DNA of 64,000 bases from positions 224,001 through 288,000 of the forward strand of contig OY762721.1 in NCBI GenBank assembly GCA_963666345.1, in the 5' to 3' direction. Position numbers and translations under genes: made by a program. The stretch is from Desulfatiglandales bacterium. GTDB taxonomy: Bacteria; Desulfobacterota; DSM-4660; Desulfatiglandales; Desulfatiglandaceae. Of this stretch, positions 1-14,763 are shown piece by piece; positions within the stretch are counted from its first letter, which is position 1, and each line of letters begins with the position of its first letter. The notes under the pieces were generated by a model that was not told the origin of the DNA, made no database searches, and saw nothing but the letters and a program-made list of their open reading frames with translations.

Positions 1-597
1 AAGGCAGGTGAGGCTCCCCCCGTACACCGCTCCGGTGTCGATCCCGATCTTATTTTTTTCTATAAGGGGTTTTTCAAAGGGGGTATGGCCGAAAATGACC
101 TGTTTTCCAAAATCATGATCCGAGTAAATGAAGGGATCCCTTATCCACAACATATCCTGCGGGTCCTGTTCCTTGAGCCGCCTTCCCGGCCTGAAACCGG
201 CGTGAACCACGATATGCCGTTCCAGTTCGATATACATCTTCAGGGATCCATAAAAATTGAGGTGGTCTTCAGGGACAGAAAAGCCTTTATCCCGGCTGTA
301 GCTTCTTATCGTGCGCAGCCCGCCGTTCATAAAATAGAGGTCCCTGTCTCTTCCCGACATATACTCCAGAAACATCGATTCATGGTTCCCCATGAGGCAC
401 TCTATGTTGGGTGAATCCCTTATGAGATCCAGTATGAAATTGACCACCTCCTTTGAATTTTCTCCCCTGTCGATATAATCACCTACAAATATCAGGCTGT
501 CCATTGCCGGGTCCCAGTCGATCTTTTCCATCAGCCGCATCAATGGATCAAGGCACCCATGGATATCTCCAACAACGAATGTCCTGTTTTCTTTCAT
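1..597 (-). CDS. Calcineurin-like metallophosphoesterase (PPP-family Ser/Thr phosphatase), runs off the window start
   Basis: Not in the ORF track; translated by hand from ATG 597: MKENRTFVVGDIHG...GDYIDRG...GNHE...IGIDTGAVYGG. ATGA overlap with the upstream gene stop. Confidence 0.9.
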   Translation of the reverse strand, partial: MKENRTFVVGDIHGCLDPLMRLMEKIDWDPAMDSLIFVGDYIDRGENSKEVVNFILDLIRDSPNIECLMGNHESMFLEYMSGRDRDLYFMNGGLRTIRSYSRDKGFSVPEDHLNFYGSLKMYIELERHIVVHAGFRPGRRLKEQDPQDMLWIRDPFIYSDHDFGKQVIFGHTPFEKPLIEKNKIGIDTGAVYGGSLTCL

Positions 598-1529
598 CGG
601 AACCTGAAGATGATTCGCTTTCTTTCCCTTGTATCCAGCCTCTTGAGACCTGCCTCTCCGGCGGCGGCCACCGCCTCCCTGAACTCATACGACCTGAGCC
701 GCCTGTCTATGTATTCATCCTCCCCCGCCCTGCCGCATGGTCTGTACTGATCCATGACATTGAGGTAGGTGCCGACAGAGATCTCTTCCGCGATAAAATC
801 CGTTACATACCTTGATCCTGAGATCCCGTTGGGCATGACTAGGTGCCTCACAATAAGTCCCGTTTCGGCTAACCCCGCTTCATCCACCTTAAGATCCCCC
901 ACCTGACGGTGCATCTCTTTCACCGCATCGATTGCATACCGCCTGTATCGGGGAGCATCACAGTACCTGAGTGCCCATTTGTCGTCCCAGAATTTAAAAT
1001 CAGGCATGTAGATATCAAAGATATTTTCCAGCAGCCTCAGCGTTTCAACCCGTTCATAGCCTCCGCAGTTATAGACCAGGGGCAGTTTGAAGCCGTTATC
1101 AACAGCCGGCAAAAGGGATTCCAGGATCTGGGGTACTACATGGGTGGGGGTGACAAAATTGATATTGTGACAACCCATCTCCTGAAGCCTCATCATCATA
1201 TGTGCCATCTGTTCAGGCCCCACTTCAATCCCTTCGGACAGATGACTTATCTCATAATTCTGACAAAACATGCACATGAGATTGCAGGAAGCGATGAAAA
1301 TGGTTCCCGATCCTAATCTTCCCACCAAGGGAGCCTCTTCGCCGAAGTGCGCGTCAAAGCTTGCCACGCGAGCCCTTCTTCCTGTCCGGCAGAAACCCGT
1401 TTCATTTTTCAGTCTGTTCACACCACACCTTCTGGGGCAAAGATGACACGATTTCATCATATCGGTTGCCACCGAGATACGGCGGGACAACTCCCCGCTT
1501 TCCGCCAGTTTCAGGTATGAGGGTTTCAT
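594..1529 (-). CDS. Radical SAM protein, PflX-like
   Basis: CHLCPRRC N-terminal motif plus CNLMCMFCQN radical SAM motif, YMPDFK, RHLVMP. Likely ATG at 1529 (ORF track starts at TTG 1550). Confidence 0.85.
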   Translation of the reverse strand: MKPSYLKLAESGELSRRISVATDMMKSCHLCPRRCGVNRLKNETGFCRTGRRARVASFDAHFGEEAPLVGRLGSGTIFIASCNLMCMFCQNYEISHLSEGIEVGPEQMAHMMMRLQEMGCHNINFVTPTHVVPQILESLLPAVDNGFKLPLVYNCGGYERVETLRLLENIFDIYMPDFKFWDDKWALRYCDAPRYRRYAIDAVKEMHRQVGDLKVDEAGLAETGLIVRHLVMPNGISGSRYVTDFIAEEISVGTYLNVMDQYRPCGRAGEDEYIDRRLRSYEFREAVAAAGEAGLKRLDTRERKRIIFRFR

Positions 1530-1621
1530 GTCGTTTGGATCTTGAAACAAAAAACCCCCTAAAAGAATATATCCTTGCAGGGGGTTCGCTTTGATATCGC
1601 TCGTTGACGGCTTTTTCCTGT

Positions 1622-2326
1622 TTAGTCTCTGGAAGTTCCGAAAATCCTCAGCAGCATCAGGAAAAGGTTTATAAAATCGAGATAAAGTGAAAGAGCCCCC
1701 AGGATCGCCCCTTTTCTCATCACCCCCGCCTCGAGATCCCCAGGCCGGCTCATTGCCATGTTTTTTATCTTCTGGGTGTCATAGGCGGTCAGACCCACGA
1801 AAACGATAACCCCGATATAGCTTATTATCATATGCATGGCACTGCTTCTTATGAACACGTTGACAAGCGAGGCTATTATTATGCCTATGAGCCCCATCAT
1901 TACAAAACCGCCCAGAGAGGTGAGGTCTTTTTTGGTGGTCCATCCGTATATGCTGCATCCCACGAATGTCCCTGCGCATATGAAGAAAACGCTGGCAATG
2001 GACGCCCCGGTATACGCCAGGAATATAAAAGACAGCGTCACTCCGTTAAGTGCCGAATAGAGGATAAAAAGGGACGTTGCCGTACCGGCGCTTATCCTGT
2101 TTATCATCCCACTTATTGAGAATACAAGCCCCAGTTCGGCAAAGATTAATATAAAGAAAATAAAACGGTTCCCATATATAAGGTTGAGCATAGTCTGACT
2201 GCCGGCCACATAAAATGCGATAAATCCCGTCAGTGCAAGACCTATTGCCATCCAGTTATACACGCTTCTTACAAAATCGTTTACAAGGGCATCTGTCCCA
2301 GCTCTTGTTATTGAACCTTCAACCAT
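1622..2326 (-). CDS. Bax inhibitor-1/YccA family membrane protein
   Basis: About 7 hydrophobic segments; TAYDTQKIK and GALSLYLDFINLF signatures. Confidence 0.92.
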   Translation of the reverse strand: MVEGSITRAGTDALVNDFVRSVYNWMAIGLALTGFIAFYVAGSQTMLNLIYGNRFIFFILIFAELGLVFSISGMINRISAGTATSLFILYSALNGVTLSFIFLAYTGASIASVFFICAGTFVGCSIYGWTTKKDLTSLGGFVMMGLIGIIIASLVNVFIRSSAMHMIISYIGVIVFVGLTAYDTQKIKNMAMSRPGDLEAGVMRKGAILGALSLYLDFINLFLMLLRIFGTSRD

Positions 2327-2817: not shown

Positions 2818-4065
2818 CTATTTATCTATCTTTTCAAGCCGTTCAACCCTTTCAAGAAGCGGGGGATGGGAATAGTTGAACAGGACATACAGGGGGTGTG
2901 GCCTGATATCTGCAAGATTATCCTTTGCCATTTTTTTAAGGGCGGAAGAAAGCATTTCAGGCCCGCCTGCCGCCCGCGCTCCATAATAATCGGCCTCTCT
3001 TTCAAATCTCCTGGACAGGGCCATACTGATCGGCGACAAGAAAAAACCGACAGGCCCCCAGATCACCCCTACCAGAAATAAACCCACGTATGCCGATGTT
3101 TCCGAAAAACCGAAGGCCTCATACATCCCCTCCCATTCAATCATCAATGAGGCGGCATAGAAAAGGACAAGCGTACTGAAAGAGCTGATAAGAAGCTGTT
3201 TCAAGATATGTCTTTTCTTTAAATGACCGATCTCATGGGCAAGTACGGCAGCTATTTCGCCCACGCTGTGAGAGCTTATCAGGGAATCAAAAAGCACTAT
3301 CCTCTTTGCCTTTCCAAGACCTGAAAGATATGCGTTGGTGTGCCTGCTCCGTTTGGAGGCATCCATTTGAAAAATCCCCTTGAGACCTATCCCCTGTCTT
3401 GCGGCCAGATCTTCCACCTCCTTTCTCAGATTTTCATCTTCAACAGGAGTGAATTTATTGAAAATAGGTGCAATAACAGTAGGATACAGTACCGTAACAA
3501 GGAGCTGGAATAAAATAAACAGGACCCATGCCCATATCCACCAGTTTTTCCCCGAATATTCAAGAATAACCAGCACCAGACAGAGAAGTCCTCCTCCCAG
3601 AACCGCGACAATCAGCACCCCCTTGATCTGATCCATTACCCAGGTCAGGCGGGTGGCCGTATTAAAACCGTGCCTGTCCTCTAAGACAAAACGATTATAG
3701 TAATCAAAAGGCATGCCGGCACAGACCATGATCACGGATGGAAACGCGAAAAAAAGGACCCCTGAAAGGATGTACGGAAGCCCTTTTGTCAACCCCCGGA
3801 ACCAGGGAAGCAACTCTGTAAGAATGATCAGGAGGAACAGTGTCTTTGACACGGCAGAGTGAAACATGTTGAAACGGCTCCGATCCCTGCTGTAACTGGA
3901 TATCTTGTTTAGCTCCGCCCTGTCTATATAACCCCTGAACTGCTCCGGGGGTTGCTCACTGAATTTTGCGCAATATCCGGAATTAATAAACTCTATAAAT
4001 AGTTCTCCGAGCCCGCTTACCGCAAACAGGAAAAGATACGCTATCAAAACGGGATTTGCATTCAT
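2818..4065 (-). CDS. M48 family zinc metalloprotease (Ste24-like)
   Basis: HEIGH zinc motif, NAYLSG, EREAD, YSHPP; multiple TM helices. Confidence 0.92.
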   Translation of the reverse strand: MNANPVLIAYLFLFAVSGLGELFIEFINSGYCAKFSEQPPEQFRGYIDRAELNKISSYSRDRSRFNMFHSAVSKTLFLLIILTELLPWFRGLTKGLPYILSGVLFFAFPSVIMVCAGMPFDYYNRFVLEDRHGFNTATRLTWVMDQIKGVLIVAVLGGGLLCLVLVILEYSGKNWWIWAWVLFILFQLLVTVLYPTVIAPIFNKFTPVEDENLRKEVEDLAARQGIGLKGIFQMDASKRSRHTNAYLSGLGKAKRIVLFDSLISSHSVGEIAAVLAHEIGHLKKRHILKQLLISSFSTLVLFYAASLMIEWEGMYEAFGFSETSAYVGLFLVGVIWGPVGFFLSPISMALSRRFEREADYYGARAAGGPEMLSSALKKMAKDNLADIRPHPLYVLFNYSHPPLLERVERLEKIDK

Positions 4066-4154: not shown

Positions 4155-4292
4155 ACGGCAAAGTGATCAAGAAGTCACGTGAGGTTCATAGATCACCTCG
4201 GCAACCAGGGCGGGGCAAAATCATGGGGTTGATCGACTCCAGGGATTGAAACATCGACCCCTTTTACCCACTCATATCGGAGAAGCGGTATA

Positions 4293-5510
4293 ATGGACAG
4301 CGAAAGGCTTTTTATAGTAATGATGGGACTGCCTGCCAGAGGCAAATCTACCCTTGCAAACAAACTGAAGGAAAATCTTGTCCGGGATTCGATAAAGACC
4401 AGGATCTTCAATAACGGTGACCTGCGCAGGAGACTCATCAAGCGGGATACGTCCTATCCGGAATTCTATGACCCGGACAACTATGAGGCGGCGACATTCA
4501 GGGAGAAGATAGCCCTCATAAACATAAACCGCGCAAAAAAATTCCTGGAGCATCGCGGCGATGTGGCGATACTGGATGCGACCCATGTAAGCAGAAAGAG
4601 GAGACAAAGGGTCACCGGCCTGTTGAAAGATCACCCGATCCTGTTTATCGAGTGCGTCAACATGGACCCTATGATCCTTGAAGCCAGCATAGAAAGGAAG
4701 ACCACCCTGCCTGAATTCACTCACCTGTCAAAGGCAGAGGCAAGAAAGAGTTTCAAGGAAAGGATAAGGTACTATGAGCGCATATACAGCCCCTTGGGGA
4801 AGGAAACAAACTATGTCCGGCTTGATACCCTCAACAACCGGATAGAGGAGGAGGAGATAAAAGGCTCAATCCCCTTTTACGACCGCTTGAGGGATTTTCT
4901 TGTCACGGACAGTGTAAAGAACCTGTTTCTTATAAGGCATGGGGAGACATATTTTAATCTTGAAAACAGGATAGGCGGAGACTCCAGCCTTACGGAAACC
5001 GGGGTTGCTCAGGCCAGAGCCCTTTCCAGGGCTTTCAGCAGCCGGAAGATCCCCTTTATTTTTACAAGTGAAAAAAAGCGAACCATTCAAACCGCCGAAC
5101 CTATAAAGGCGCTTCAGAGTAAGTGCTCAATCATCGGCCTAAAGGAATTCAACGAGATAGACAGCGGGGTCTGCGAATGCATGAGTTATGAGGAAATCAA
5201 CCTGAAGATGCCGGAGATCTATCATGCCAGAAAAGTGGACAAATACAATTACATATATCCGCAAGGCGAAGGATATATTTCCATGAAAAAGAGGGTCTAC
5301 CTCGGAATAAAGAAGGCCCTTTATCTCAGCGGCAACGCCAGCAATATCATGATAATAGGGCACAGGGCGGTAAACCGCATGATCCTTTCACACTTCCTAT
5401 ACAAAAGGCAGGAAGACGTGCCCTACATATACGTGCCCCAGGACAAGTTTTATCATGTAGTGGCCACGCAGGACAAAAAGCTTTTCCAGCTCAAGGCCTA
5501 CGATATCTGA
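4293..5510 (+). CDS. Bifunctional 6-phosphofructo-2-kinase/fructose-2,6-bisphosphatase-like protein
   Basis: N-terminal GLPARGKS P-loop, FNNGDLRR, ILDAT; C-terminal histidine phosphatase RHGE, RIGGDS, NEIDSG, DKYNYIYPQGE, GHRAV. Confidence 0.88.
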   Translation: MDSERLFIVMMGLPARGKSTLANKLKENLVRDSIKTRIFNNGDLRRRLIKRDTSYPEFYDPDNYEAATFREKIALININRAKKFLEHRGDVAILDATHVSRKRRQRVTGLLKDHPILFIECVNMDPMILEASIERKTTLPEFTHLSKAEARKSFKERIRYYERIYSPLGKETNYVRLDTLNNRIEEEEIKGSIPFYDRLRDFLVTDSVKNLFLIRHGETYFNLENRIGGDSSLTETGVAQARALSRAFSSRKIPFIFTSEKKRTIQTAEPIKALQSKCSIIGLKEFNEIDSGVCECMSYEEINLKMPEIYHARKVDKYNYIYPQGEGYISMKKRVYLGIKKALYLSGNASNIMIIGHRAVNRMILSHFLYKRQEDVPYIYVPQDKFYHVVATQDKKLFQLKAYDI

Positions 5511-7359: not shown

Positions 7360-8256
7360 TTAATGCCCTCCCCTGTTTTCAAGCATCTCTTTTATAATGC
7401 CCCTGTCCCTGTGCCTTTCAAGTCCAAGCTCGCTTAAACCGGCTCCCAGACAAAGTCCCACAAGCTGGGTAAAAAAGAGCGCGGACGGCAGACGGGACTC
7501 CTTTTTCCGGTATTTCTTATCCACCACAAAGGGGTACAGGTAATATACGACCTGACAGTTGGGGCAGGCGTTTATTATGAAATCGGCACCGCTTTCTTTA
7601 AGGGCTGCGTATCTTAAGGCCACAAGCCTCCTGCCGACCTCCTCGTCAAAGGCCAGCATGGTTCCCCCACAGCAGCGTCTTTCATAGGCGAAATCGCATA
7701 TTGAAGCGCCGGTTATATCGATCAACCCCCTCAGCTTCCTATTGAAGGAATCACAGTCCATGCCGGGATGAAGGCTGAGAGGTCTCGAAGCATTACAAGG
7801 CTCCTGGATCGCGACCCTGACATCGATATCATCCCTTTTCAGTTCCCCTATTTTTTCAAAAAGCCCCTTTTGAGTGAGAAATTCCACTATGTGCATTACA
7901 TTGAAATTCTCATCCGGTTTGTATTCAAGCCCCTCTTTTCCCAGGACCTCGTTTATCTCCGAGAGCCGTTCACCTTCTTCCATCTCCTTTTTGGCCCTCA
8001 AAAGCTCGAAGGTACAGCTTCCGCACAGGGCCACCAGGGTGTTTACGCCATGTGATTGCGCAATAGCAAGATTTCTGGCACTGAGTGCCGTCAGGGCCTT
8101 CTCATCCACGGACTCGAGCACCTGGGAGCCGCAGCAGGTGAATTCAGGTATGAACATGCCTTTAAGGCCCAGTTTTTCGAGGATAACGTAGGCCGATTTT
8201 TCATATTCAGGGTATCTGTAGGTTACAAGGCATCCCGGGAATATAGCCAGAGTCAT
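7360..8256 (-). CDS. hdrB: Heterodisulfide reductase subunit B-like protein (two CCG domains)
   Basis: PGC...TCCG...CGSC and PC...RCCGG...ACPNC motifs. Confidence 0.8.
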   Translation of the reverse strand: MTLAIFPGCLVTYRYPEYEKSAYVILEKLGLKGMFIPEFTCCGSQVLESVDEKALTALSARNLAIAQSHGVNTLVALCGSCTFELLRAKKEMEEGERLSEINEVLGKEGLEYKPDENFNVMHIVEFLTQKGLFEKIGELKRDDIDVRVAIQEPCNASRPLSLHPGMDCDSFNRKLRGLIDITGASICDFAYERRCCGGTMLAFDEEVGRRLVALRYAALKESGADFIINACPNCQVVYYLYPFVVDKKYRKKESRLPSALFFTQLVGLCLGAGLSELGLERHRDRGIIKEMLENRGGH

Positions 8257-8266
8257 AATTCACCAT

Positions 8267-8677
8267 CTATGTCCTATATCTGCGAATATTTTCAAAAAAG
8301 GAACTCATGCCGCAGCTGATTTTTTTCAGATCCAGTTCAGGCAGACCGAGCGCATTCCTCTCCTGATTGGTATCATCGTCCACAGGGAAGAGAAAGCCTC
8401 TTTCTTTCAAAAGCCTGATATACTTGAGCAGCCTTTCCCCACCCTTGAATCCGTTAGCAATTTTCAACCTTCTGATCGCGAACATCTTATCGCGGGGGCT
8501 CAAGGCCTCGGGGCAGTTATCCGTGCACAGATGACAGGAACAGCAGAGCCATGGATTTATCTCCTTTTCAAAGAAGAGATCACTCAGGACCCTGTCCGGC
8601 TCGATCTCTTCTATGGGACAAATCCTGCTGCAGGTACCGCACTGCTGACATGTGACATCGTTCATCTCCATATCCAT
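8267..8677 (-). CDS. hdrC: Heterodisulfide reductase subunit C-like 2x[4Fe-4S] protein
   Basis: CQQCGTCSRICP and WLCCSCHLCTDNCP; lies immediately upstream of the hdrB-like gene. Confidence 0.75.
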   Translation of the reverse strand: MDMEMNDVTCQQCGTCSRICPIEEIEPDRVLSDLFFEKEINPWLCCSCHLCTDNCPEALSPRDKMFAIRRLKIANGFKGGERLLKYIRLLKERGFLFPVDDDTNQERNALGLPELDLKKISCGMSSFFENIRRYRT

Positions 8678-8741: not shown

Positions 8742-9041
8742 TCATCCGCCCCTGACCCTGAAACGCGGCCTTTGAATGTGGGTGCCCCTGCACTTCGGGC
8801 ACCGCCCCGGTTCCGTAAAACGGGTTCTTTTTGCAAAGATAAAACCGCACCCGATACACCTTGAAGGAATTATCTCAACCTTTGCGCCCGATGCCGTCAG
8901 AGAACGGTTTACCTTCGGCAGATGATCGTAGACCTCTTTCTCCCCGATTCCTATCCGCCGGGACAGGTCCATGGCGCTCATTTCCTCATCCTGCAAAAGA
9001 CGCATGATCTGTTTTCTTATGCTCTCCGCCCGATCGCTCAT
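8742..9041 (-). CDS. HTH plus zinc-ribbon putative transcriptional regulator
   Basis: N-terminal HTH (MSAMDLSRRIGIGEKEVYDHL), then CIGCGF...RCPKC. Likely ATG at 9041. Confidence 0.75.
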   Translation of the reverse strand: MSDRAESIRKQIMRLLQDEEMSAMDLSRRIGIGEKEVYDHLPKVNRSLTASGAKVEIIPSRCIGCGFIFAKRTRFTEPGRCPKCRGTHIQRPRFRVRGG

Positions 9042-9211
9042 GACGGATGATTCTTTCACACATCTTGAGCAGGTTCAAGAGGGACTGATTTTTTTCTTGT
9101 ACAAACAAGCTTTGAGCTGATAGTTAATTTTGGTTATCCAAATTCTGCAGCTTTTTAATGATGGAAAACCGGAGTGGATTCATTAAGTTTTGTCGGATGG
9201 AGGAATACCGG

Positions 9212-9601
9212 ATGAAGGCACTGGGCAGGCATGTTCTGGTGGAGATGTACGGCTGCGATCAACTCATTTTGAACGACAGGGAGTCGGTACGGAACTCGAT
9301 GCTCAAGGCGGCCCGGCAATCAGGCGCCACCATAATGGGCGATTCCTTCCATGATTTCATGCCTCACGGAATCAGCGGAGTTGTGGTAATTGCAGAATCG
9401 CACCTGTCAATACACACCTGGCCCGAATATGGTTTCGCGGCCCTTGACCTTTTCACCTGCGGTGATGAAGTGGATCCGTGGCAGGCATTTGAGCATCTGC
9501 GTGAGGCGTTTAAGGCCGATCACTCCTCACAGATAGAAATCAAACGGGGGCAGTTCCCTCTAGAAAAAGACACCCGGCGACCCTACAAGCCGGATATCTG
9601 A
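9212..9601 (+). CDS. speD: S-adenosylmethionine decarboxylase proenzyme
   Basis: [19 protein letters not shown] self-cleavage motif, DLFTCG. ATG 9212 follows GGAGG. Confidence 0.93.
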
Positions 9602-9743
9602 ACCATACTGCCATTTACAGGTGTACGGTCCTGTGCACGACAAGAGGGGGTTTTCTTCGGGCATTGCAAGTTTTAAGCGACTGCTTCGGCCCTTTTTCCC
9701 GTCCTGCTTCATACAAACAATCGGATGGTCGAAGGATAGGATA

Positions 9744-10592
9744 ATGGATCAACAACACTGGTATACAGAGCTCGAAAATGAAAGCTACGGCATAACAATA
9801 CGGATCGACCGGCAGATATTTAAAGCTGACACGGGTATCCAGCAGATAGAGATATTTGAAAACAGGGACCTGGGAAGGGTCCTTGTCCTTGACGGCTGCA
9901 TAATGCTTACGGAAAAGGACGAGGCCGCATACCATGAAATGCTAGTTCACCCTGCCCTGCTTTCCCATCCGGACCCTCAACAGATACTCATCATAGGCGG
10001 AGGCGACGGCGGAACGCTCAGGGAAGTTGTCAAACATGGGGAGGTGAAAAAGGCGGTCGTCTGCGAAATCGACAAAGCCGTGATCGAGAACAGCATCAAG
10101 CACCTTCCCTTCACGGCGGCCGCATTTGATTCCCCCAGGGCCGAGATACATATCGGAGACGGAATAAGGTACGTGGATGATCACCCGGGATCATTCGATA
10201 TAATAATAGTCGATTCCACGGACCCGGTCGGCATGGCGGAAGGCCTTTTCAGGGCACCCTTTTACAGGAGCTGCCTCAAGGCCCTTAAAACAGGGGGAGT
10301 GTTTGTGCAGCAGTCTGAATCACCATTTTTTGAATTTGATTCATGGCGGCGCATATTCAGGGAGCTTGGATCGGTTTTCACGGACGTATTTCCCTATTGC
10401 GCGGGAGTACCGATGTATCTGAGCGGATTCTGGACCTTCGCCTTTGCATCAACCCGGATCGACCCATGGAGATTCTTTGACAAAAAACGGGCGTTTCAAC
10501 TGCCCGAGCTGCGATATTACACGCCTCAAATGCAGCAAAAGGCATTCTGTCTTCCAGGTTTTGCCGAAAGAGGTATAAATAATAACGCCTAG
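9744..10592 (+). CDS. speE: Polyamine aminopropyltransferase (spermidine synthase)
   Basis: YHEMLVH, IIGGGDGG, CEID, IIVDSTDP; follows speD. Likely start at MDQQHW. Confidence 0.93.
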   Translation: MDQQHWYTELENESYGITIRIDRQIFKADTGIQQIEIFENRDLGRVLVLDGCIMLTEKDEAAYHEMLVHPALLSHPDPQQILIIGGGDGGTLREVVKHGEVKKAVVCEIDKAVIENSIKHLPFTAAAFDSPRAEIHIGDGIRYVDDHPGSFDIIIVDSTDPVGMAEGLFRAPFYRSCLKALKTGGVFVQQSESPFFEFDSWRRIFRELGSVFTDVFPYCAGVPMYLSGFWTFAFASTRIDPWRFFDKKRAFQLPELRYYTPQMQQKAFCLPGFAERGINNNA

Positions 10593-10842
10593 TTTCTTAA
10601 GTCGAAGATATCGCGCTTCTGCCTGCCGGTAAATCCCTTTTTCTGCCCGTTAATATAACCGGATCACCTGCCCCGGGAGATCCTCTTTGATTCGGCAGGC
10701 GTGAAGCCTCAGGGCTTAAAAGGGGTTCTTACCGAAGATCCCGCCGGGGGGATTCCCTTTTACCACCAGGTTGCAGGAAGACCATATAACCGGGCTCATC
10801 CATGAACCGGGAGTAAATGAAAGGCTGTCAGCTTTGCCGCAT

Positions 10843-13800
10843 ATGAAAGACATCGAAAAGATACGTTCCCTTATACCGGATCTTATGATCAGTGACAGGG
10901 GCTTGATCCTTAAGGGCCTCAAAAGGCTGAAGAGCAAAAGCAGGAACGCTGGAAAACCGGAACACGCACGCGTCCTTCTAAGGAGTCTTCTCAGGAAGGC
11001 GGAGTCCTCGGTCGCCAAGGCGGAAAAACGCCTCAGGCTTAAACCTCACATAGATATCCCCCAAGCCCTACCGATATCCTCCAGAACCAGGGAGATCGTA
11101 GACACCATAAAAAAGAACCGGGTTGTCATTATAGCCGGTGACACCGGTTCCGGCAAAAGCACCCAGATCCCGAAGATGTGTCTCAAGGCGGGTCAAGGCG
11201 TTAGAGGCATAATCGGCTGCACGCAGCCCAGGAGGATCGCCGCCACTACTATTGCCGGACGCATAGCAGAAGAGCTCGGAGAGGATATCGGCAGGTCGGT
11301 CGGCTACAGGATCAGATTCAAGGACAGGACAAGCCCGGGGGCGTATATCAAGATGCTCACAGACGGCATGCTTCTTGCCGAGGCACAGAGGGACCCTTTT
11401 CTAAACGATTACGACACGGTCATCGTTGATGAAGCGCATGAAAGAAGCCTCAATATAGATTTCATCCTGGGGATACTCAAGAGGCTTCTGAAAAAGAGAA
11501 AAAACCTGAAGGTCATAATCACCTCTGCTACAATAGATACCGGAAAATTTTCAGCCGCCTTTGACAGTGCACCGGTAATCGAGGTGTCCGGGCGCATGTA
11601 CCCTGTGGACCTTGAATACATGCCGCCTGATGAGACGTCAGGGGATTCTGAAGAGCTCACATATGTCGACAGGGCATTAGAGGCGGTTGAAAAGGTGAGG
11701 AAAGAGAGCCTGTTCGGCGGAATCCTCATCTTCATGCCGACCGAGCGGGATATCCTCGAGACGTGTGAGCGGCTCAAGGGAAGAAAATATACGGAAACCC
11801 TTATCCTCCCGCTCTTTGCAAGACTTCCAGCCTCAAGGCAGAAAAGGATCTTTTCATCCTTTGCCGGACAGAAGATAATCGTTGCCACAAATGTTGCGGA
11901 GACATCCCTGACCGTGCCGGGCATAAGGTATGTTATCGATACCGGACTTGCCAGGATTTCCAGATATACCCCGAGAACCAGGACTACCAGCCTTCCGATA
12001 AGCCCGATATCGATAAGCAGCGCTGATCAGAGAAAAGGCAGATGCGGAAGGGTGGAAAAGGGAAAATGCATAAGGCTCTATTCAGAGGAGGATTACCTGT
12101 CAAGGATCGAATTCACCCCTCCCGAGATACTCAGGGCGAATCTTGCCGAGGTCATACTTCGCATGATCTCTCTAAAGCTGGGAGATATCGCCTCGTTTCC
12201 TTTCATAGACAAACCCGGAGGCAGGAGCGTAAAAGACGGATTCGACCTTCTCATGGAGCTGGGCGCACTTGAAAAAGCGGGTAATCGTTACCTCCTCACT
12301 GAAAAGGGAAAATCCATGGCACGCATGCCTCTTGACCCTAAAATATCCAGGATGATGATAGAGGCTCAAAAAGAGGGCTGCATAAAAGAGGCGGCAGTGA
12401 TAGCCTCGGCCCTCAGCATACAGGACCCGAGAGAGCGGCCGCTTGAAGCGGCAGGTGAAGCGGACAGGGCGCATGAGGTCTTCACGGATCATACCTCCGA
12501 TTTCATGAGCCTCCTGAATATCTGGAACAGCTACCACGCATCGCTGAAAAAACTCAGGACCCAGAACAGGATGAGGAGGTTCTGCAGGGAGCATTTTCTC
12601 TCTTTTGCAAGGATAAAAGAGTGGCGCGATATCCATGATCAGATAATCTCCATACTTAAGGAGCAGGGCATAAACCCCGATTCAACCATAAACGGCACGC
12701 CTGAGGCCCTTTACCAGGGGGTTCACAAGACGATCCTGAGCGGGTTTCTCTCCAATATCGCTCTCAAAAAGGAGAAGTATATATACGGCGCGGCAAAAGG
12801 CAGGGAAGTGATGCTGTTTCCCGGGTCAGGCCTTTTCAAGAAACCGCCTGCCTGGATAGTGGCGGCGGAAATGGTCAAGACGTCCAGGCTTTTCGCCAGG
12901 ACCGCCGCCCGGATAGACCCCGGCTGGCTGGAAGCGCTCGGAAAAGGCCTTTGCAGGTACAGCTATTCCGATCCCCACTGGGAGAAAAGCAGGGGCGAGG
13001 TGGTGGCATCTGAACAGGTAAGCCTTTACGGTCTTATTATTATCGAAAAAAGACCTGTATCCTACGGCCCGATAGACCCGGAAAAATCAGCCGGAATCTT
13101 CATGGAACAGGCCCTTGTATCCGGAAACATCAAGGGAAATTTCCCGTTTCTAAAACACAACCTGGAGCTCGTAAACAGGATAACGGAAATGGAGGCCAAG
13201 GTCAGGCGCAGAAACATACTTGCGGATGAAGACAGGATGGCTCGATTTTACGAGGAGCGGCTTGGCAGGATCTACAGCTCAAGATCCCTGGCCGCCCTTA
13301 TCAGGAAGACAGGTGACGACGCATTCCTCAGGATGAGCGAAAAGGACCTTGTCACGGCCTATCCTGAAGATTCCGAACTTGATCAGTACCCGGATCATCT
13401 GAAGATCGGCAAGGCAAGATTCAGTTTTACCTACAGATTCGCGCCGGGCGCTGAAGAAGACGGGGTAACCATAAACATCCCTTCAAGTCTCGCGTCCCAG
13501 GTGCCGCCTGACAAACTCGAATGGACGGTCCCCGGGCTTTTCAGAGAAAAGGTGACCGCCCTTATAAAGGGGCTCCCCAAGCGGTACAGGCGCAGACTCG
13601 TGCCCGTATCCAGGAGCGTGGACATAATCCTGTCGGAGATGGAAAAGCAGGACATACCTCTTAAGATTGCCTTGAGCAGGTTTATATATAACAGATTCGG
13701 CACGGACATCCCGCCTGAACAATGGCCTGACAAAGGCCTGCCCGAACACCTCAAGATGAGGGTTTCCATAATAGATCATAAGGGGAAGGAGATAACCTCG

Positions 13801-14763
13801 GCCCGGGATTCACGCATTCTTTCGACAAAGGGATTCGGAGGCAGGCCCGAAGAACTCGACTCGTGGAAGGCGGCCGTGGAAAAGCTTGAAATCTCCGGCA
13901 TCACGAAATGGGATTTTGACGCCCTGCCGGAGAGGATAGACATCGACTCATCACTTGCCGCCTACCCCGCCCTCACCCCTGAAGGTGACGCCCTTTCAAT
14001 AAGGCTTTTTTCAGATAGAAACAAGGCGGAAACAACCCACAGGGAAGGAATGGGAAGGCTCTTTGAGATCCATTTCAGAAAGGAAATCAAATTCATTAAA
14101 AGGATACTTGTCTTCCCCGCAAATATAAATGAGCCATGTGAAATTCTGGGAGGCAAAAAGGACCTTGAGGCCTCCCTTCTCGTAAGTCTCACGAGCCGCC
14201 TCTTTAAAAAGGATTTCAGGAGCCGGGATGAATTCGATTTACACGCGCAAAAGATTTCCCCCCTGCTTTTGACGGAGGCAAAAGAGCTCCTTGACGCCTC
14301 GATAGACGTGGTGAGCGCGTATGCGGATACCAGGGGGTGCCTTTATTCACTTGAAAAATCAAACAGAAAAAACAATCCCGCGCTCCTTCTTTGCTCTCAG
14401 CTTCGCGATGAACTTGAAGAGCTTGTTCCGAAGCGCTTTCCTGAAAAATATCTGCCTGAAAGGCTCGCGCAGATTCCCCGTTATACAAGGGCCATATCCA
14501 TAAGGGCCGAGCGGGCCGTAAACGATCTTGAAAAAGACAAAAACAAGGCAATTAAGATAACCCCTTTCATATCTGTCTTAAGGGGAATGCAAGACGGCAT
14601 TTCAGAGCATGCCTCGGAGGGAAAAAGGAGTGCGGTCAAATCCTTTCGCTGGATGATCGAGGAGCTGAAGGTCTCGATCTTCGCGCAGGAGTTAAGGACC
14701 CCTTACCCGGTTTCCGAAAAGCGGCTCATTAAAATGGCGGATGAAATAAACCGTATGCTCTGA
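10843..14763 (+). CDS. hrpA: ATP-dependent RNA helicase HrpA
   Basis: GDTGSGKSTQ, TQPRR, DEAH, SAT, QRKGRCGR, C-terminal EELKVSIFAQEL. Start uncertain (10771-10843). Confidence 0.93.
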   Translation: MKDIEKIRSLIPDLMISDRGLILKGLKRLKSKSRNAGKPEHARVLLRSLLRKAESSVAKAEKRLRLKPHIDIPQALPISSRTREIVDTIKKNRVVIIAGDTGSGKSTQIPKMCLKAGQGVRGIIGCTQPRRIAATTIAGRIAEELGEDIGRSVGYRIRFKDRTSPGAYIKMLTDGMLLAEAQRDPFLNDYDTVIVDEAHERSLNIDFILGILKRLLKKRKNLKVIITSATIDTGKFSAAFDSAPVIEVSGRMYPVDLEYMPPDETSGDSEELTYVDRALEAVEKVRKESLFGGILIFMPTERDILETCERLKGRKYTETLILPLFARLPASRQKRIFSSFAGQKIIVATNVAETSLTVPGIRYVIDTGLARISRYTPRTRTTSLPISPISISSADQRKGRCGRVEKGKCIRLYSEEDYLSRIEFTPPEILRANLAEVILRMISLKLGDIASFPFIDKPGGRSVKDGFDLLMELGALEKAGNRYLLTEKGKSMARMPLDPKISRMMIEAQKEGCIKEAAVIASALSIQDPRERPLEAAGEADRAHEVFTDHTSDFMSLLNIWNSYHASLKKLRTQNRMRRFCREHFLSFARIKEWRDIHDQIISILKEQGINPDSTINGTPEALYQGVHKTILSGFLSNIALKKEKYIYGAAKGREVMLFPGSGLFKKPPAWIVAAEMVKTSRLFARTAARIDPGWLEALGKGLCRYSYSDPHWEKSRGEVVASEQVSLYGLIIIEKRPVSYGPIDPEKSAGIFMEQALVSGNIKGNFPFLKHNLELVNRITEMEAKVRRRNILADEDRMARFYEERLGRIYSSRSLAALIRKTGDDAFLRMSEKDLVTAYPEDSELDQYPDHLKIGKARFSFTYRFAPGAEEDGVTINIPSSLASQVPPDKLEWTVPGLFREKVTALIKGLPKRYRRRLVPVSRSVDIILSEMEKQDIPLKIALSRFIYNRFGTDIPPEQWPDKGLPEHLKMRVSIIDHKGKEITSARDSRILSTKGFGGRPEELDSWKAAVEKLEISGITKWDFDALPERIDIDSSLAAYPALTPEGDALSIRLFSDRNKAETTHREGMGRLFEIHFRKEIKFIKRILVFPANINEPCEILGGKKDLEASLLVSLTSRLFKKDFRSRDEFDLHAQKISPLLLTEAKELLDASIDVVSAYADTRGCLYSLEKSNRKNNPALLLCSQLRDELEELVPKRFPEKYLPERLAQIPRYTRAISIRAERAVNDLEKDKNKAIKITPFISVLRGMQDGISEHASEGKRSAVKSFRWMIEELKVSIFAQELRTPYPVSEKRLIKMADEINRML

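Follow-up and report, generated by a model that had tools for sequence, protein, structure and literature searches.

Introduction

Textbooks treat fructose-2,6-bisphosphate (Fru-2,6-P2) as a switch between glycolysis and gluconeogenesis that belongs to eukaryotes alone. It is a competitive active-site inhibitor of class I fructose-1,6-bisphosphatases (FBPases), including the Escherichia coli enzyme, and in plants and some protists its receiver is the pyrophosphate-dependent phosphofructokinase (PPi-PFK). The closest solved relatives of the gene considered here are the animal 6-phosphofructo-2-kinase/fructose-2,6-bisphosphatases (PFK-2/FBPase-2; isozymes PFKFB1-4), which pair head to head through their kinase domains. 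Here we examine a bacterial homologue encoded in a stretch of 64,000 nucleotides (the window) from a Desulfatiglandales bacterium (GenBank assembly GCA_963666345.1, contig OY762721.1, positions 224,001 to 288,000 of the forward strand). The protein retains both domains and both active sites, and we judge it fairly probable that it is an active, self-contained fructose-6-phosphate (Fru-6-P) 2-kinase/Fru-2,6-P2 2-phosphatase with class I FBPase as its likeliest target.

That bacteria carry such genes is not new, homologues having been known in the literature for some 20 years. PMC9721465 cites Rider 2004 for a homologue in Desulfovibrio desulfuricans, and 51 of 401 genomes of the phylum carry one in our survey, so that the novelty of a bacterial occurrence, as put forward in a preliminary description of this DNA, does not hold. 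Its remark that homologues in sulfate reducers lack a biochemical explanation is consistent with the literature found: no assay of a bacterial PFK-2/FBPase-2 came to light in the literature searched, a weak negative given that enzyme names containing commas are not searchable. The 2004 review by Rider et al. and the 2006 one by Michels and Rigden reportedly record the bacterial gene, not an assay. What is new is the near-obligate company that the gene keeps with class I FBPase, the absence from the genome of any second FBPase type among those searched for, and a control-backed prediction that the clade packs and pairs its domains in another way than the eukaryotic and myxobacterial forms.

A Complete Two-Domain Homologue

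The open reading frame (ORF) runs for 405 codons without an internal stop, and the opposite-strand ORFs that overlie positions 4293-5510 are short and unsupported. The gene is present in a single copy in the genome, which consists of one contig of 4,162,108 bases. The profile search that the preliminary description had proposed as a check finds an N-terminal 6PF2K P-loop kinase and a C-terminal branch-1 histidine phosphatase in one chain, the domain arrangement of the PFKFB enzymes (Pfam; values in Table 1). All of the motifs listed in that description are present in the translation, both those of the kinase (GLPARGKS 12-19, FNNGDLRR 39-46, EFYDPDN 57-63, DATH 95-98 and FKERIRYY 154-161) and those of the phosphatase (RHGE 215-218, RIGGDS 226-231, RTIQTA 263-268, NEIDSGVCE 287-295, DKYNYIYPQGE 316-326 and GH 356-357). 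Among PDB sequences searched with phmmer, the best match is human PFKFB3 (E 2.3e-61, residues 7-383), followed by rat testis PFKFB4 and the human liver and heart isozymes (E 1e-57 to 1e-60), a similarity far above chance level. Together with the intact catalytic and substrate-pocket residues described below, these matches bear out the claim of a complete two-domain PFK-2/FBPase-2 homologue. The protein begins 5 residues ahead of the first kinase strand and ends at 405, just past the last phosphatase strand, and thus lacks the N- and C-terminal regulatory extensions of the animal isozymes.

A CobC/PhoE-type phosphatase was considered and rejected. The score of 85.2 bits on the CobC model TIGR03162 falls well short of the cut-off of 162.9, the other NCBIfam matches also lie below their cut-offs, and a kinase domain is present; the automatic label "alpha-ribazole phosphatase family" given to the clade is therefore misleading.

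Conservation of Both Active Sites

Residues were mapped through the phmmer alignment to PFKFB3, chain index plus 18 giving the PFKFB3 number, and this numbering agrees with the ATP loop Pro43-Thr48 and Glu322 in PMC6937325. The Fru-6-P pocket of PFKFB3, as given in PMC3177832, comprises Arg74, Arg75, Arg98, Asp124, Thr126, Arg132, Arg189, Tyr193 and Thr48, and the alignment places R45, R46, R70, D95, T97, R103, R157, Y161 and S19 of the window protein at these positions. The P-loop is G12-S19, the Walker B residue is D95, and K136 is equivalent to PFKFB3 Lys168. Conservation was assessed in 120 close homologues and 5 clade representatives (125 in all), with 16 eukaryotes and 11 other bacteria for comparison. 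The kinase pocket residues, K136 included, are invariant or present in 119/120 of the close relatives and in 5/5 of the clade representatives; position 19 is excepted, where a conservative Ser replaces Thr48 in 116/120 relatives and Ser and Thr interchange. A structure model without the Fru-6-P-binding residues would, according to the preliminary description, have pointed to another substrate, and these binders are present. The same description had contrasted "DATH" with the eukaryotic DATN; the motif does stand in the window sequence, but it is no trait of the clade, being confined to this sequence and 2 others, while 117/120 close relatives read DATN like the eukaryotes (His98 to Asn).

In the phosphatase half, the core residues R215, H216, E218, N222, E288 and H357 correspond to PFKFB3 R252, H253, E255, N259, E322 and H387, and the phospho-His, Glu and second His noted earlier can thus be identified as H216, E288 and H357. 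R263 aligns with PFKFB3 position 302, which is Ser in that low-phosphatase isozyme; unlike PFKFB3, the window protein here shares the Arg of the liver, heart and testis isozymes. The 6-phosphate of Fru-2,6-P2 is presumably bound in the rat liver enzyme by Tyr338, Arg352, Lys356, Tyr367 and Arg397, and the residues aligned with these, Y299, R313, K317, Y328 and R362, are predicted to bind it in the window protein. R215, H216, N222, R263, E288, Y299, R313, K317, Y328, H357 and R362 are invariant in 125/125 sequences, whereas E218 varies, being Gln or Lys in 4/5 clade representatives and 5/11 other bacteria. With 47 invariant positions common to roughly 120 relatives at 67-72% identity, purifying selection on the gene is evident.

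This invariance also bears on whether a single half might work in vivo, for example a phosphatase with an idle nucleotide-sensing kinase, or the reverse. Monofunctional members of the family reportedly occur in unicellular eukaryotes (protist and yeast homologues), as Michels and Rigden are said to have described in 2006. The known monofunctional cases have substituted catalytic residues, however, whereas the catalytic residues of both halves are invariant in the 125 clade members here, and we regard a one-sided enzyme as very unlikely.

Distribution and Phylogeny

Measured against the 1637 ORFs of at least 300 aa in the genome, the gene has a guanine-plus-cytosine (GC) content of 0.475 (25th percentile), a GC at third codon positions (GC3) of 0.618 (84th percentile) and a codon-usage distance at the 47th percentile, and the flanking GC is similar to that of the gene. 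The host-like composition that had been judged by eye is thereby confirmed in numbers. A word-indexed search returned 1802 relatives, and among the best 120 of these one is 98% identical and the others 67-72%, with source names of Desulfatiglandaceae, Desulfobacteraceae and Desulfobacterales. When each GTDB species is represented by a single genome, a relative is encoded in 113 stretches; locus comparisons use 80 of the 113, among them loci of Desulfatiglandales, strain NaphS2, Desulfonatronospira and Desulfarculia. Across 401 evenly sampled Desulfobacterota genomes, 6PF2K exceeds the Pfam cut-off in 55 and gives a strong match (>100 bits) in 51, the strong carriers including 6/6 genomes of the window's own family, 4/4 of the next family and one genus with 11 positive genomes. 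A search of 1.84 billion cluster representatives yielded 263 clusters that reach E 1e-30.

Two unrooted trees were built, a FastTree of 121 full-length representatives and an IQ-TREE of 43 rows hand-picked from about 380 proteins (10 of the window clade, 2 named Myxococcota, 9 short unlabelled, 12 labelled eukaryotes and 10 long unlabelled), and the two are concordant. In the latter, the 10-row window clade forms one side of a branch with 98/96 support, and all 12 labelled eukaryotes stand on the other; a 9-row core of the clade has 100/100 support and a stem of 1.06 changes per site. This phylogeny, likewise proposed as a check in the preliminary description, thus sets the window gene in a deep Desulfobacterota clade outside all sampled eukaryotes, in agreement with the earlier argument against a recent transfer. 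A second bacterial type lies much nearer to the eukaryotes and is interleaved with them at low support; it takes in the Myxococcota proteins, numerous unlabelled proteins about 400 aa long and a copy from a single Desulfobacterota genome (G099). The ESM Atlas is concordant, with two Thermodesulfobacteriota clusters (339 and 182 members), one mostly of Myxococcota (92) and further eukaryotic clusters. Long N-terminal extensions occur only in eukaryote-like representatives. The tree, having no root, gives no direction for the passage of the gene between bacteria and eukaryotes.

The best solved and named relatives are eukaryotic, which might suggest that the gene came recently from a eukaryote or entered the assembly as eukaryotic contamination. 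The chance of this is negligible. The gene is surrounded by bacterial genes on the single 4.16-Mb contig of a bacterial genome, in composition and codon usage it resembles the rest of the host's genes, its neighbourhood is kept in dozens of related genomes, and the 98/96 branch parts its clade from every labelled eukaryote; composition, context and tree thus rule out such an origin for practical purposes. The gene is intact and vertically inherited.

The G099 copy is an observation in its own right. Locus L086 (G099:C51, about 1330-2561), from a Desulfobacterota genome of another family, encodes a Myxococcota/eukaryote-like PFK-2/FBPase-2 that keeps the Arg of RYRYP and the Gln of GHQAVLR and lies on a high-GC bacterial contig. 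A longer frame at this locus (643-779 aa) was rejected as a eukaryote-like protein, being a GC artefact; the real gene, of about 405 aa, stands on the bacterial contig. Beside the window clade, this copy means that there are two bacterial PFK-2/FBPase-2 types in one phylum.

Predicted Structure and Dimer

From a 45-row alignment we built an AlphaFold2 (AF2) model of the protein (predicted local distance difference test, pLDDT, 93.1; predicted template-modelling score, pTM, 0.88) and compared it with solved structures by Foldseek and VIA-align. The top Foldseek matches are PFKFB3, PFKFB2, PFKFB1 and PFKFB4 (E 6e-38 downward), with a template-modelling (TM) score on the query (TMq) of 0.50 and a root-mean-square deviation (rmsd) of about 16.5 Å over some 418 columns; VIA-align against PFKFB chains likewise gives Z 32-34 over about 390 residues at an rmsd of 15-16.6 Å, both domains pairing with those chains residue by residue. 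Taken singly, the domains fit well. The isolated rat FBPase-2 domain superposes on the model with a TM score on the target (TMt) of 0.91 and an rmsd of 2.0 Å in Foldseek, and the phosphatase domain matches rat liver FBPase-2 (1fbt) in VIA-align with Z 27.1 and an rmsd of 1.8 Å over 188 residues. The good fit by domain and the poor fit of the whole chain point to an unusual mutual position of two individually orthodox domains, a predicted packing unlike that of every solved PFKFB. The control protein P0281 from the Myxococcota, modelled alike (pLDDT 94.2, pTM 0.91), reproduces the crystal packing (TMq 0.93-0.96, rmsd 1.2-1.9 Å), and the Atlas ESMFold model of the window protein has TM 0.98-0.99 to the two Desulfobacterota clusters and 0.52-0.57 to the eukaryotic ones. 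The term "eukaryote-type" used in the preliminary description is therefore apt for the domains and residues; it does not extend to the predicted packing, which is unlike that of the solved eukaryotic enzymes.

A two-copy prediction scored 0.77 against 0.00 for the best of 3 controls, its runs agreeing in 100% of contacts and the partner pLDDT being at least 88; in calibration, the two-copy mark is passed by 20 of 30 proteins whose solved structures are pairs, and by 1 of 23 whose structures are single chains. The predicted interface comprises residues 183, 197-205, 366-382 and 393-400, strand 393-400 pairing with itself across the dyad, and suggests a homodimer formed through the phosphatase domain and linker. 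Conservation in the clade averages 0.916 over the 29 interface residues and 0.777 elsewhere, a level reached by about 0.0002 of 5000 random sets (about one set), although contiguous residues and close kin inflate this result.

Class I FBPase as Candidate Receiver and Proposed Function

Class I FBPase was found in 50 of the 51 strong 6PF2K carriers and in 166 of the 350 genomes without a strong match, counts for which we give no p-value because related genomes are not independent samples, a limit that itself tells against reading too much into them. The sole carrier in which it was not found (G225) is 80% complete, and all 11 family codes containing a carrier have the enzyme. This co-occurrence is more telling than the gene order considered below. 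In the window's own genome, searches for GlpX and FBPase_3 gave no match, which leaves class I as the sole type found; the class III and IMPase-type FBPases were not searched. Since Fru-2,6-P2 competes at the active site of class I FBPases, this enzyme is the most economical receiver.

We propose the following mechanism. The N-terminal P-loop domain would transfer the gamma-phosphate of ATP to O2 of Fru-6-P, which would be held by R45, R46, R70, T97, R103, R157 and Y161, with K136 and D95 catalytic. The C-terminal domain would remove the 2-phosphate by hydrolysis, with His216 phosphorylated as the intermediate; E288 would probably donate the proton, and H357, R215, N222 and R263 would surround the phosphate. 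The lack of regulatory tails and the Arg at the PFKFB3 Ser302 position suggest that both activities are constitutively competent, so that the Fru-2,6-P2 level might be set by substrates and metabolite effectors, not by protein phosphorylation. Fru-2,6-P2 would then inhibit class I FBPase at its active site and avert a futile cycle between gluconeogenesis, presumably a need of an anaerobe that does not eat sugars, and the breakdown of stored polyglucose through three phosphofructokinase (PFK) paralogues. We infer both the presence of Fru-2,6-P2 in the cell and its target. It is likely that both enzyme activities exist; that FBPase is the main receiver we would put at even chances.

Several observations weigh against this proposal. 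No NCBIfam model reaches its cut-off for the window protein, the best being phosphatase families far below theirs, and relatives therefore carry mixed automatic names ("histidine phosphatase family," "PhoE/predicted kinase," "6-phosphofructokinase," "PFK-2/FBPase-2"). Although Z is 32-34, the AF2 model has a TMq of 0.50 and an rmsd of about 16 Å against 25 PFKFB entries, and with a different packing, regulation or even specificity could differ. Within the clade, PFKFB3 Arg355 is replaced by Ile or Val and Gln388 by Arg (116/120), and kinase Asn163 is mostly Ser, departures from all 16 eukaryotes sampled; the first two positions, equivalent to rat liver Arg360 and Gln393 near the 6-phosphate binders, are Ile and Arg in the window protein. 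These clade-specific changes, two of them beside the phosphatase pocket, can be added to the long stem that parts the clade from all others and to the predicted packing, and might together indicate another substrate, such as the ketose phosphates sedoheptulose-7-P or tagatose-6-P, with a different bisphosphate made and broken. We nevertheless think this quite improbable, as every reported Fru-6-P contact of PFKFB3 is kept in the kinase pocket, so is every residue that we take to bind the 6-phosphate in FBPase-2, and the Arg355 equivalent presumably governs substrate inhibition, not specificity.

The receiver is the other point at which the proposal may be questioned. Pfam identifies three PFK paralogues in the genome: a long ATP-PFK (NF005301, 671 bits), one above the general ATP-PFK subfamily cut-off of NCBIfam, and one below all NCBIfam cut-offs with GGDDT and PKTMDND motifs, which we take to be a PPi-type signature. 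Genes for glycogen synthase and phosphorylase are also present. The same chemistry could accordingly serve a receiver other than FBPase, whether a PFK paralogue (the PPi-type-looking PFK_B or the long ATP-PFK), pyruvate kinase or the glycogen enzymes, and the role of PPi-PFK in plants and protists lends this some substance, as does the modest enrichment of the long ATP-PFK among carriers (33/51 versus 138/350 non-carriers). That co-occurrence is loose, however, and a tight link to the long ATP-PFK, considered as a candidate, was not borne out: this PFK is missing from 18/51 carriers, including 5/5 genomes of genus g30, whereas class I FBPase is present in all of the 51 carriers but one. To our knowledge, moreover, the bacterial PPi-PFKs studied so far are insensitive to Fru-2,6-P2. 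We consider a receiver other than FBPase unlikely.

One PFK paralogue merits separate mention. Lying outside the window at G000:C1:2786030-2787130 (+), it is the best of the three by score (299.6 bits on Pfam PFK; 316.8 bits on NF002872, an ATP-PFK subfamily) and reads GGFDS and TIDRN where active phosphofructokinases, as we understand them, have GGDGS/GGDDT and TIDND; judged by these motifs, it may be a divergent or regulatory PFK. The other two paralogues lie at C1:3290687-3291859 and C1:2861473-2862888.

Gene order offers less. FBPase lies upstream, the distance from the end of its ORF to the start of the PFK-2/FBPase-2 gene being about 4.3 kb, and related loci show a recurrent order of receiver-domain protein, FBPase, metallophosphoesterase, radical-SAM protein, BI-1-family protein, sometimes an M48 peptidase, and PFK-2/FBPase-2. 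Of the 80 loci, 42 have FBPase upstream; of the 40 whose upstream flank exceeds 6 kb, 32 do. The gap is 1.2-5.4 kb (median 3.4 kb). This synteny is absent from the Desulfonatronospira and Desulfarculia loci, the two genes are far apart in G338, of the same family, and in G016 and G079, and FBPase is distant or lacking at loci L079, L081 and L083. An operon with FBPase was rejected because genes on the opposite strand separate the two, and the linkage is confined to one order. We read it as lineage-bound synteny, and as weak evidence of function.

A broader reading would make Fru-2,6-P2 a native, anciently inherited regulator of the Desulfobacterota, made and broken by a tail-less, differently packed dimer joined at its phosphatase end that gates the only (class I) FBPase, with the eukaryotic enzyme derived from a myxobacterium-like form and the Desulfobacterota clade a separate old branch. 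We offer this tentatively and regard it, taken as a whole, as doubtful. Even so, about 1 in 8 sampled Desulfobacterota genomes (51/401) hold an intact make-and-break enzyme, nearly always together with the FBPase class that the signal inhibits, and whether bacteria use Fru-2,6-P2 can now be asked at the bench with defined components from a single genome, namely this enzyme, its FBPase and the three PFKs. The answer bears on the control of carbon flux in anaerobes that mineralise much of the organic matter of sediments, and on the origin of a eukaryotic regulator.

Gene Neighbourhood

By its layout, the PFK-2/FBPase-2 gene is monocistronic, and a convergent acyl-CoA synthetase gene lies downstream. 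A scan for promoters and terminators was uninformative: promoter-like sites numbered 2 where 2.6 were expected, and the single terminator-like site, which lies on the wrong strand, compares with an expectation of 3.0. A look-up of sequencing runs listed 4 DNA-type holders and no RNA holder, a result silent on expression. The features of the locus are collected in Table 1.

Table 1. Features of the PFK-2/FBPase-2 locus. Positions are those of the window unless a contig position (G000:C1) is given.
Feature	Position	Strand	Basis
CheY-type receiver gene	G000:C1:222340-222834, just before the window		
Class I FBPase, 346 aa	G000:C1:222932-223972, just before the window		480 bits on NCBIfam equivalog (cut-off 368)
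Metallophosphoesterase (ApaH/PrpE-like, below cut-offs; cut by window start)	1-597	-	ORF, NCBIfam
Radical SAM protein	594-1550	-	ORF, NCBIfam; 4-base overlap with metallophosphoesterase
BI-1/YccA-family membrane protein	1622-2326	-	ORF, NCBIfam
M48 peptidase, divergent, upstream of the PFK-2/FBPase-2 gene	2818-4065	-	ORF, NCBIfam
GGAG, likely ribosome-binding site, 10 nt 5' of ATG	4279..4282	+	Consensus match only, read from sequence
Bifunctional PFK-2/FBPase-2 homologue, 405 aa	4293..5510	+	ATG start, ORF and translation, Pfam, PDB match
Kinase (6PF2K) domain, residues 3-182	4299..4838	+	Pfam PF01591, E 4.3e-37, 128 bits (cut-off 27)
Histidine-phosphatase (FBPase-2) domain, residues 211-396	4923..5480	+	Pfam His_Phos_1 PF00300, E 2.6e-34, 119 bits (cut-off 21.7)
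C-terminal segment, residues 366-400, predicted homodimer interface with linker 183, 197-205	5388..5492	+	Model only

In the related loci, genes for the metallophosphoesterase, the radical-SAM protein and the BI-1/YccA-family protein stand between FBPase and PFK-2/FBPase-2 in 47, 50 and 60 of the 80, respectively. Farther along the window, translations suggest an HdrB-like CCG-domain protein (7360-8256) and an HdrC-like small 4Fe-4S protein (8267-8677), both on the minus strand, adjoined by a putative 105-aa regulator with winged-helix and zinc-ribbon-like features (8742-9059, minus strand). On the plus strand, positions 9158-14763 hold speD-like and speE-like genes (S-adenosylmethionine decarboxylase and spermidine synthase) followed by a 1330-aa HrpA-type helicase, all named by eye from their translations.

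Comparison with Known Systems

Set against the animal PFKFB1-4 (PDB 2AXN, 1BIF, 1K6M and 5HTK), the window protein has the same domain order, is collinear over 7-383 at 30-35% identity, and has the same P-loop, Walker B, Fru-6-P pocket, RHGE phospho-His, Glu and second His. The animal enzymes carry N-terminal (about 30-aa) and C-terminal (about 50-90-aa) regulatory extensions that the window protein lacks, and with them their phosphorylation sites. It differs further in having Ile for Arg355 and Arg for Gln388, in the predicted relative position of two domains that each fit, and in a predicted pairing through the phosphatase domain and linker, where the solved PFKFBs pair through their kinase domains. 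The single-domain histidine phosphatases (CobC alpha-ribazole phosphatase, PhoE/PspA and dPGM) share the C-terminal fold and RHG core with the window protein and, unlike it, have no kinase domain.

Closer in taxonomy is the Desulfovibrio desulfuricans homologue, from the same phylum and very probably of the same bacterial clade; unlike it, the window copy comes from a Desulfatiglandales-like genome. The Myxococcota type (P0281, "Myxococcota bacterium"; P0335, "Byssovorax sp.") is also tail-less, at about 400 aa, and matches the window protein in its domains and catalytic residues. It is far closer to the eukaryotes, however, with 46-47% identity to PFKFBs and a place interleaved with them in the tree; it keeps Arg355, and 6/11 of the group keep Gln388, and its model has the crystal domain packing that the model of the window protein does not. 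For the much-studied human PFKFB3, a naturally occurring PFK-2/FBPase-2 that is free of regulation and differs in predicted architecture would make a useful point of comparison.

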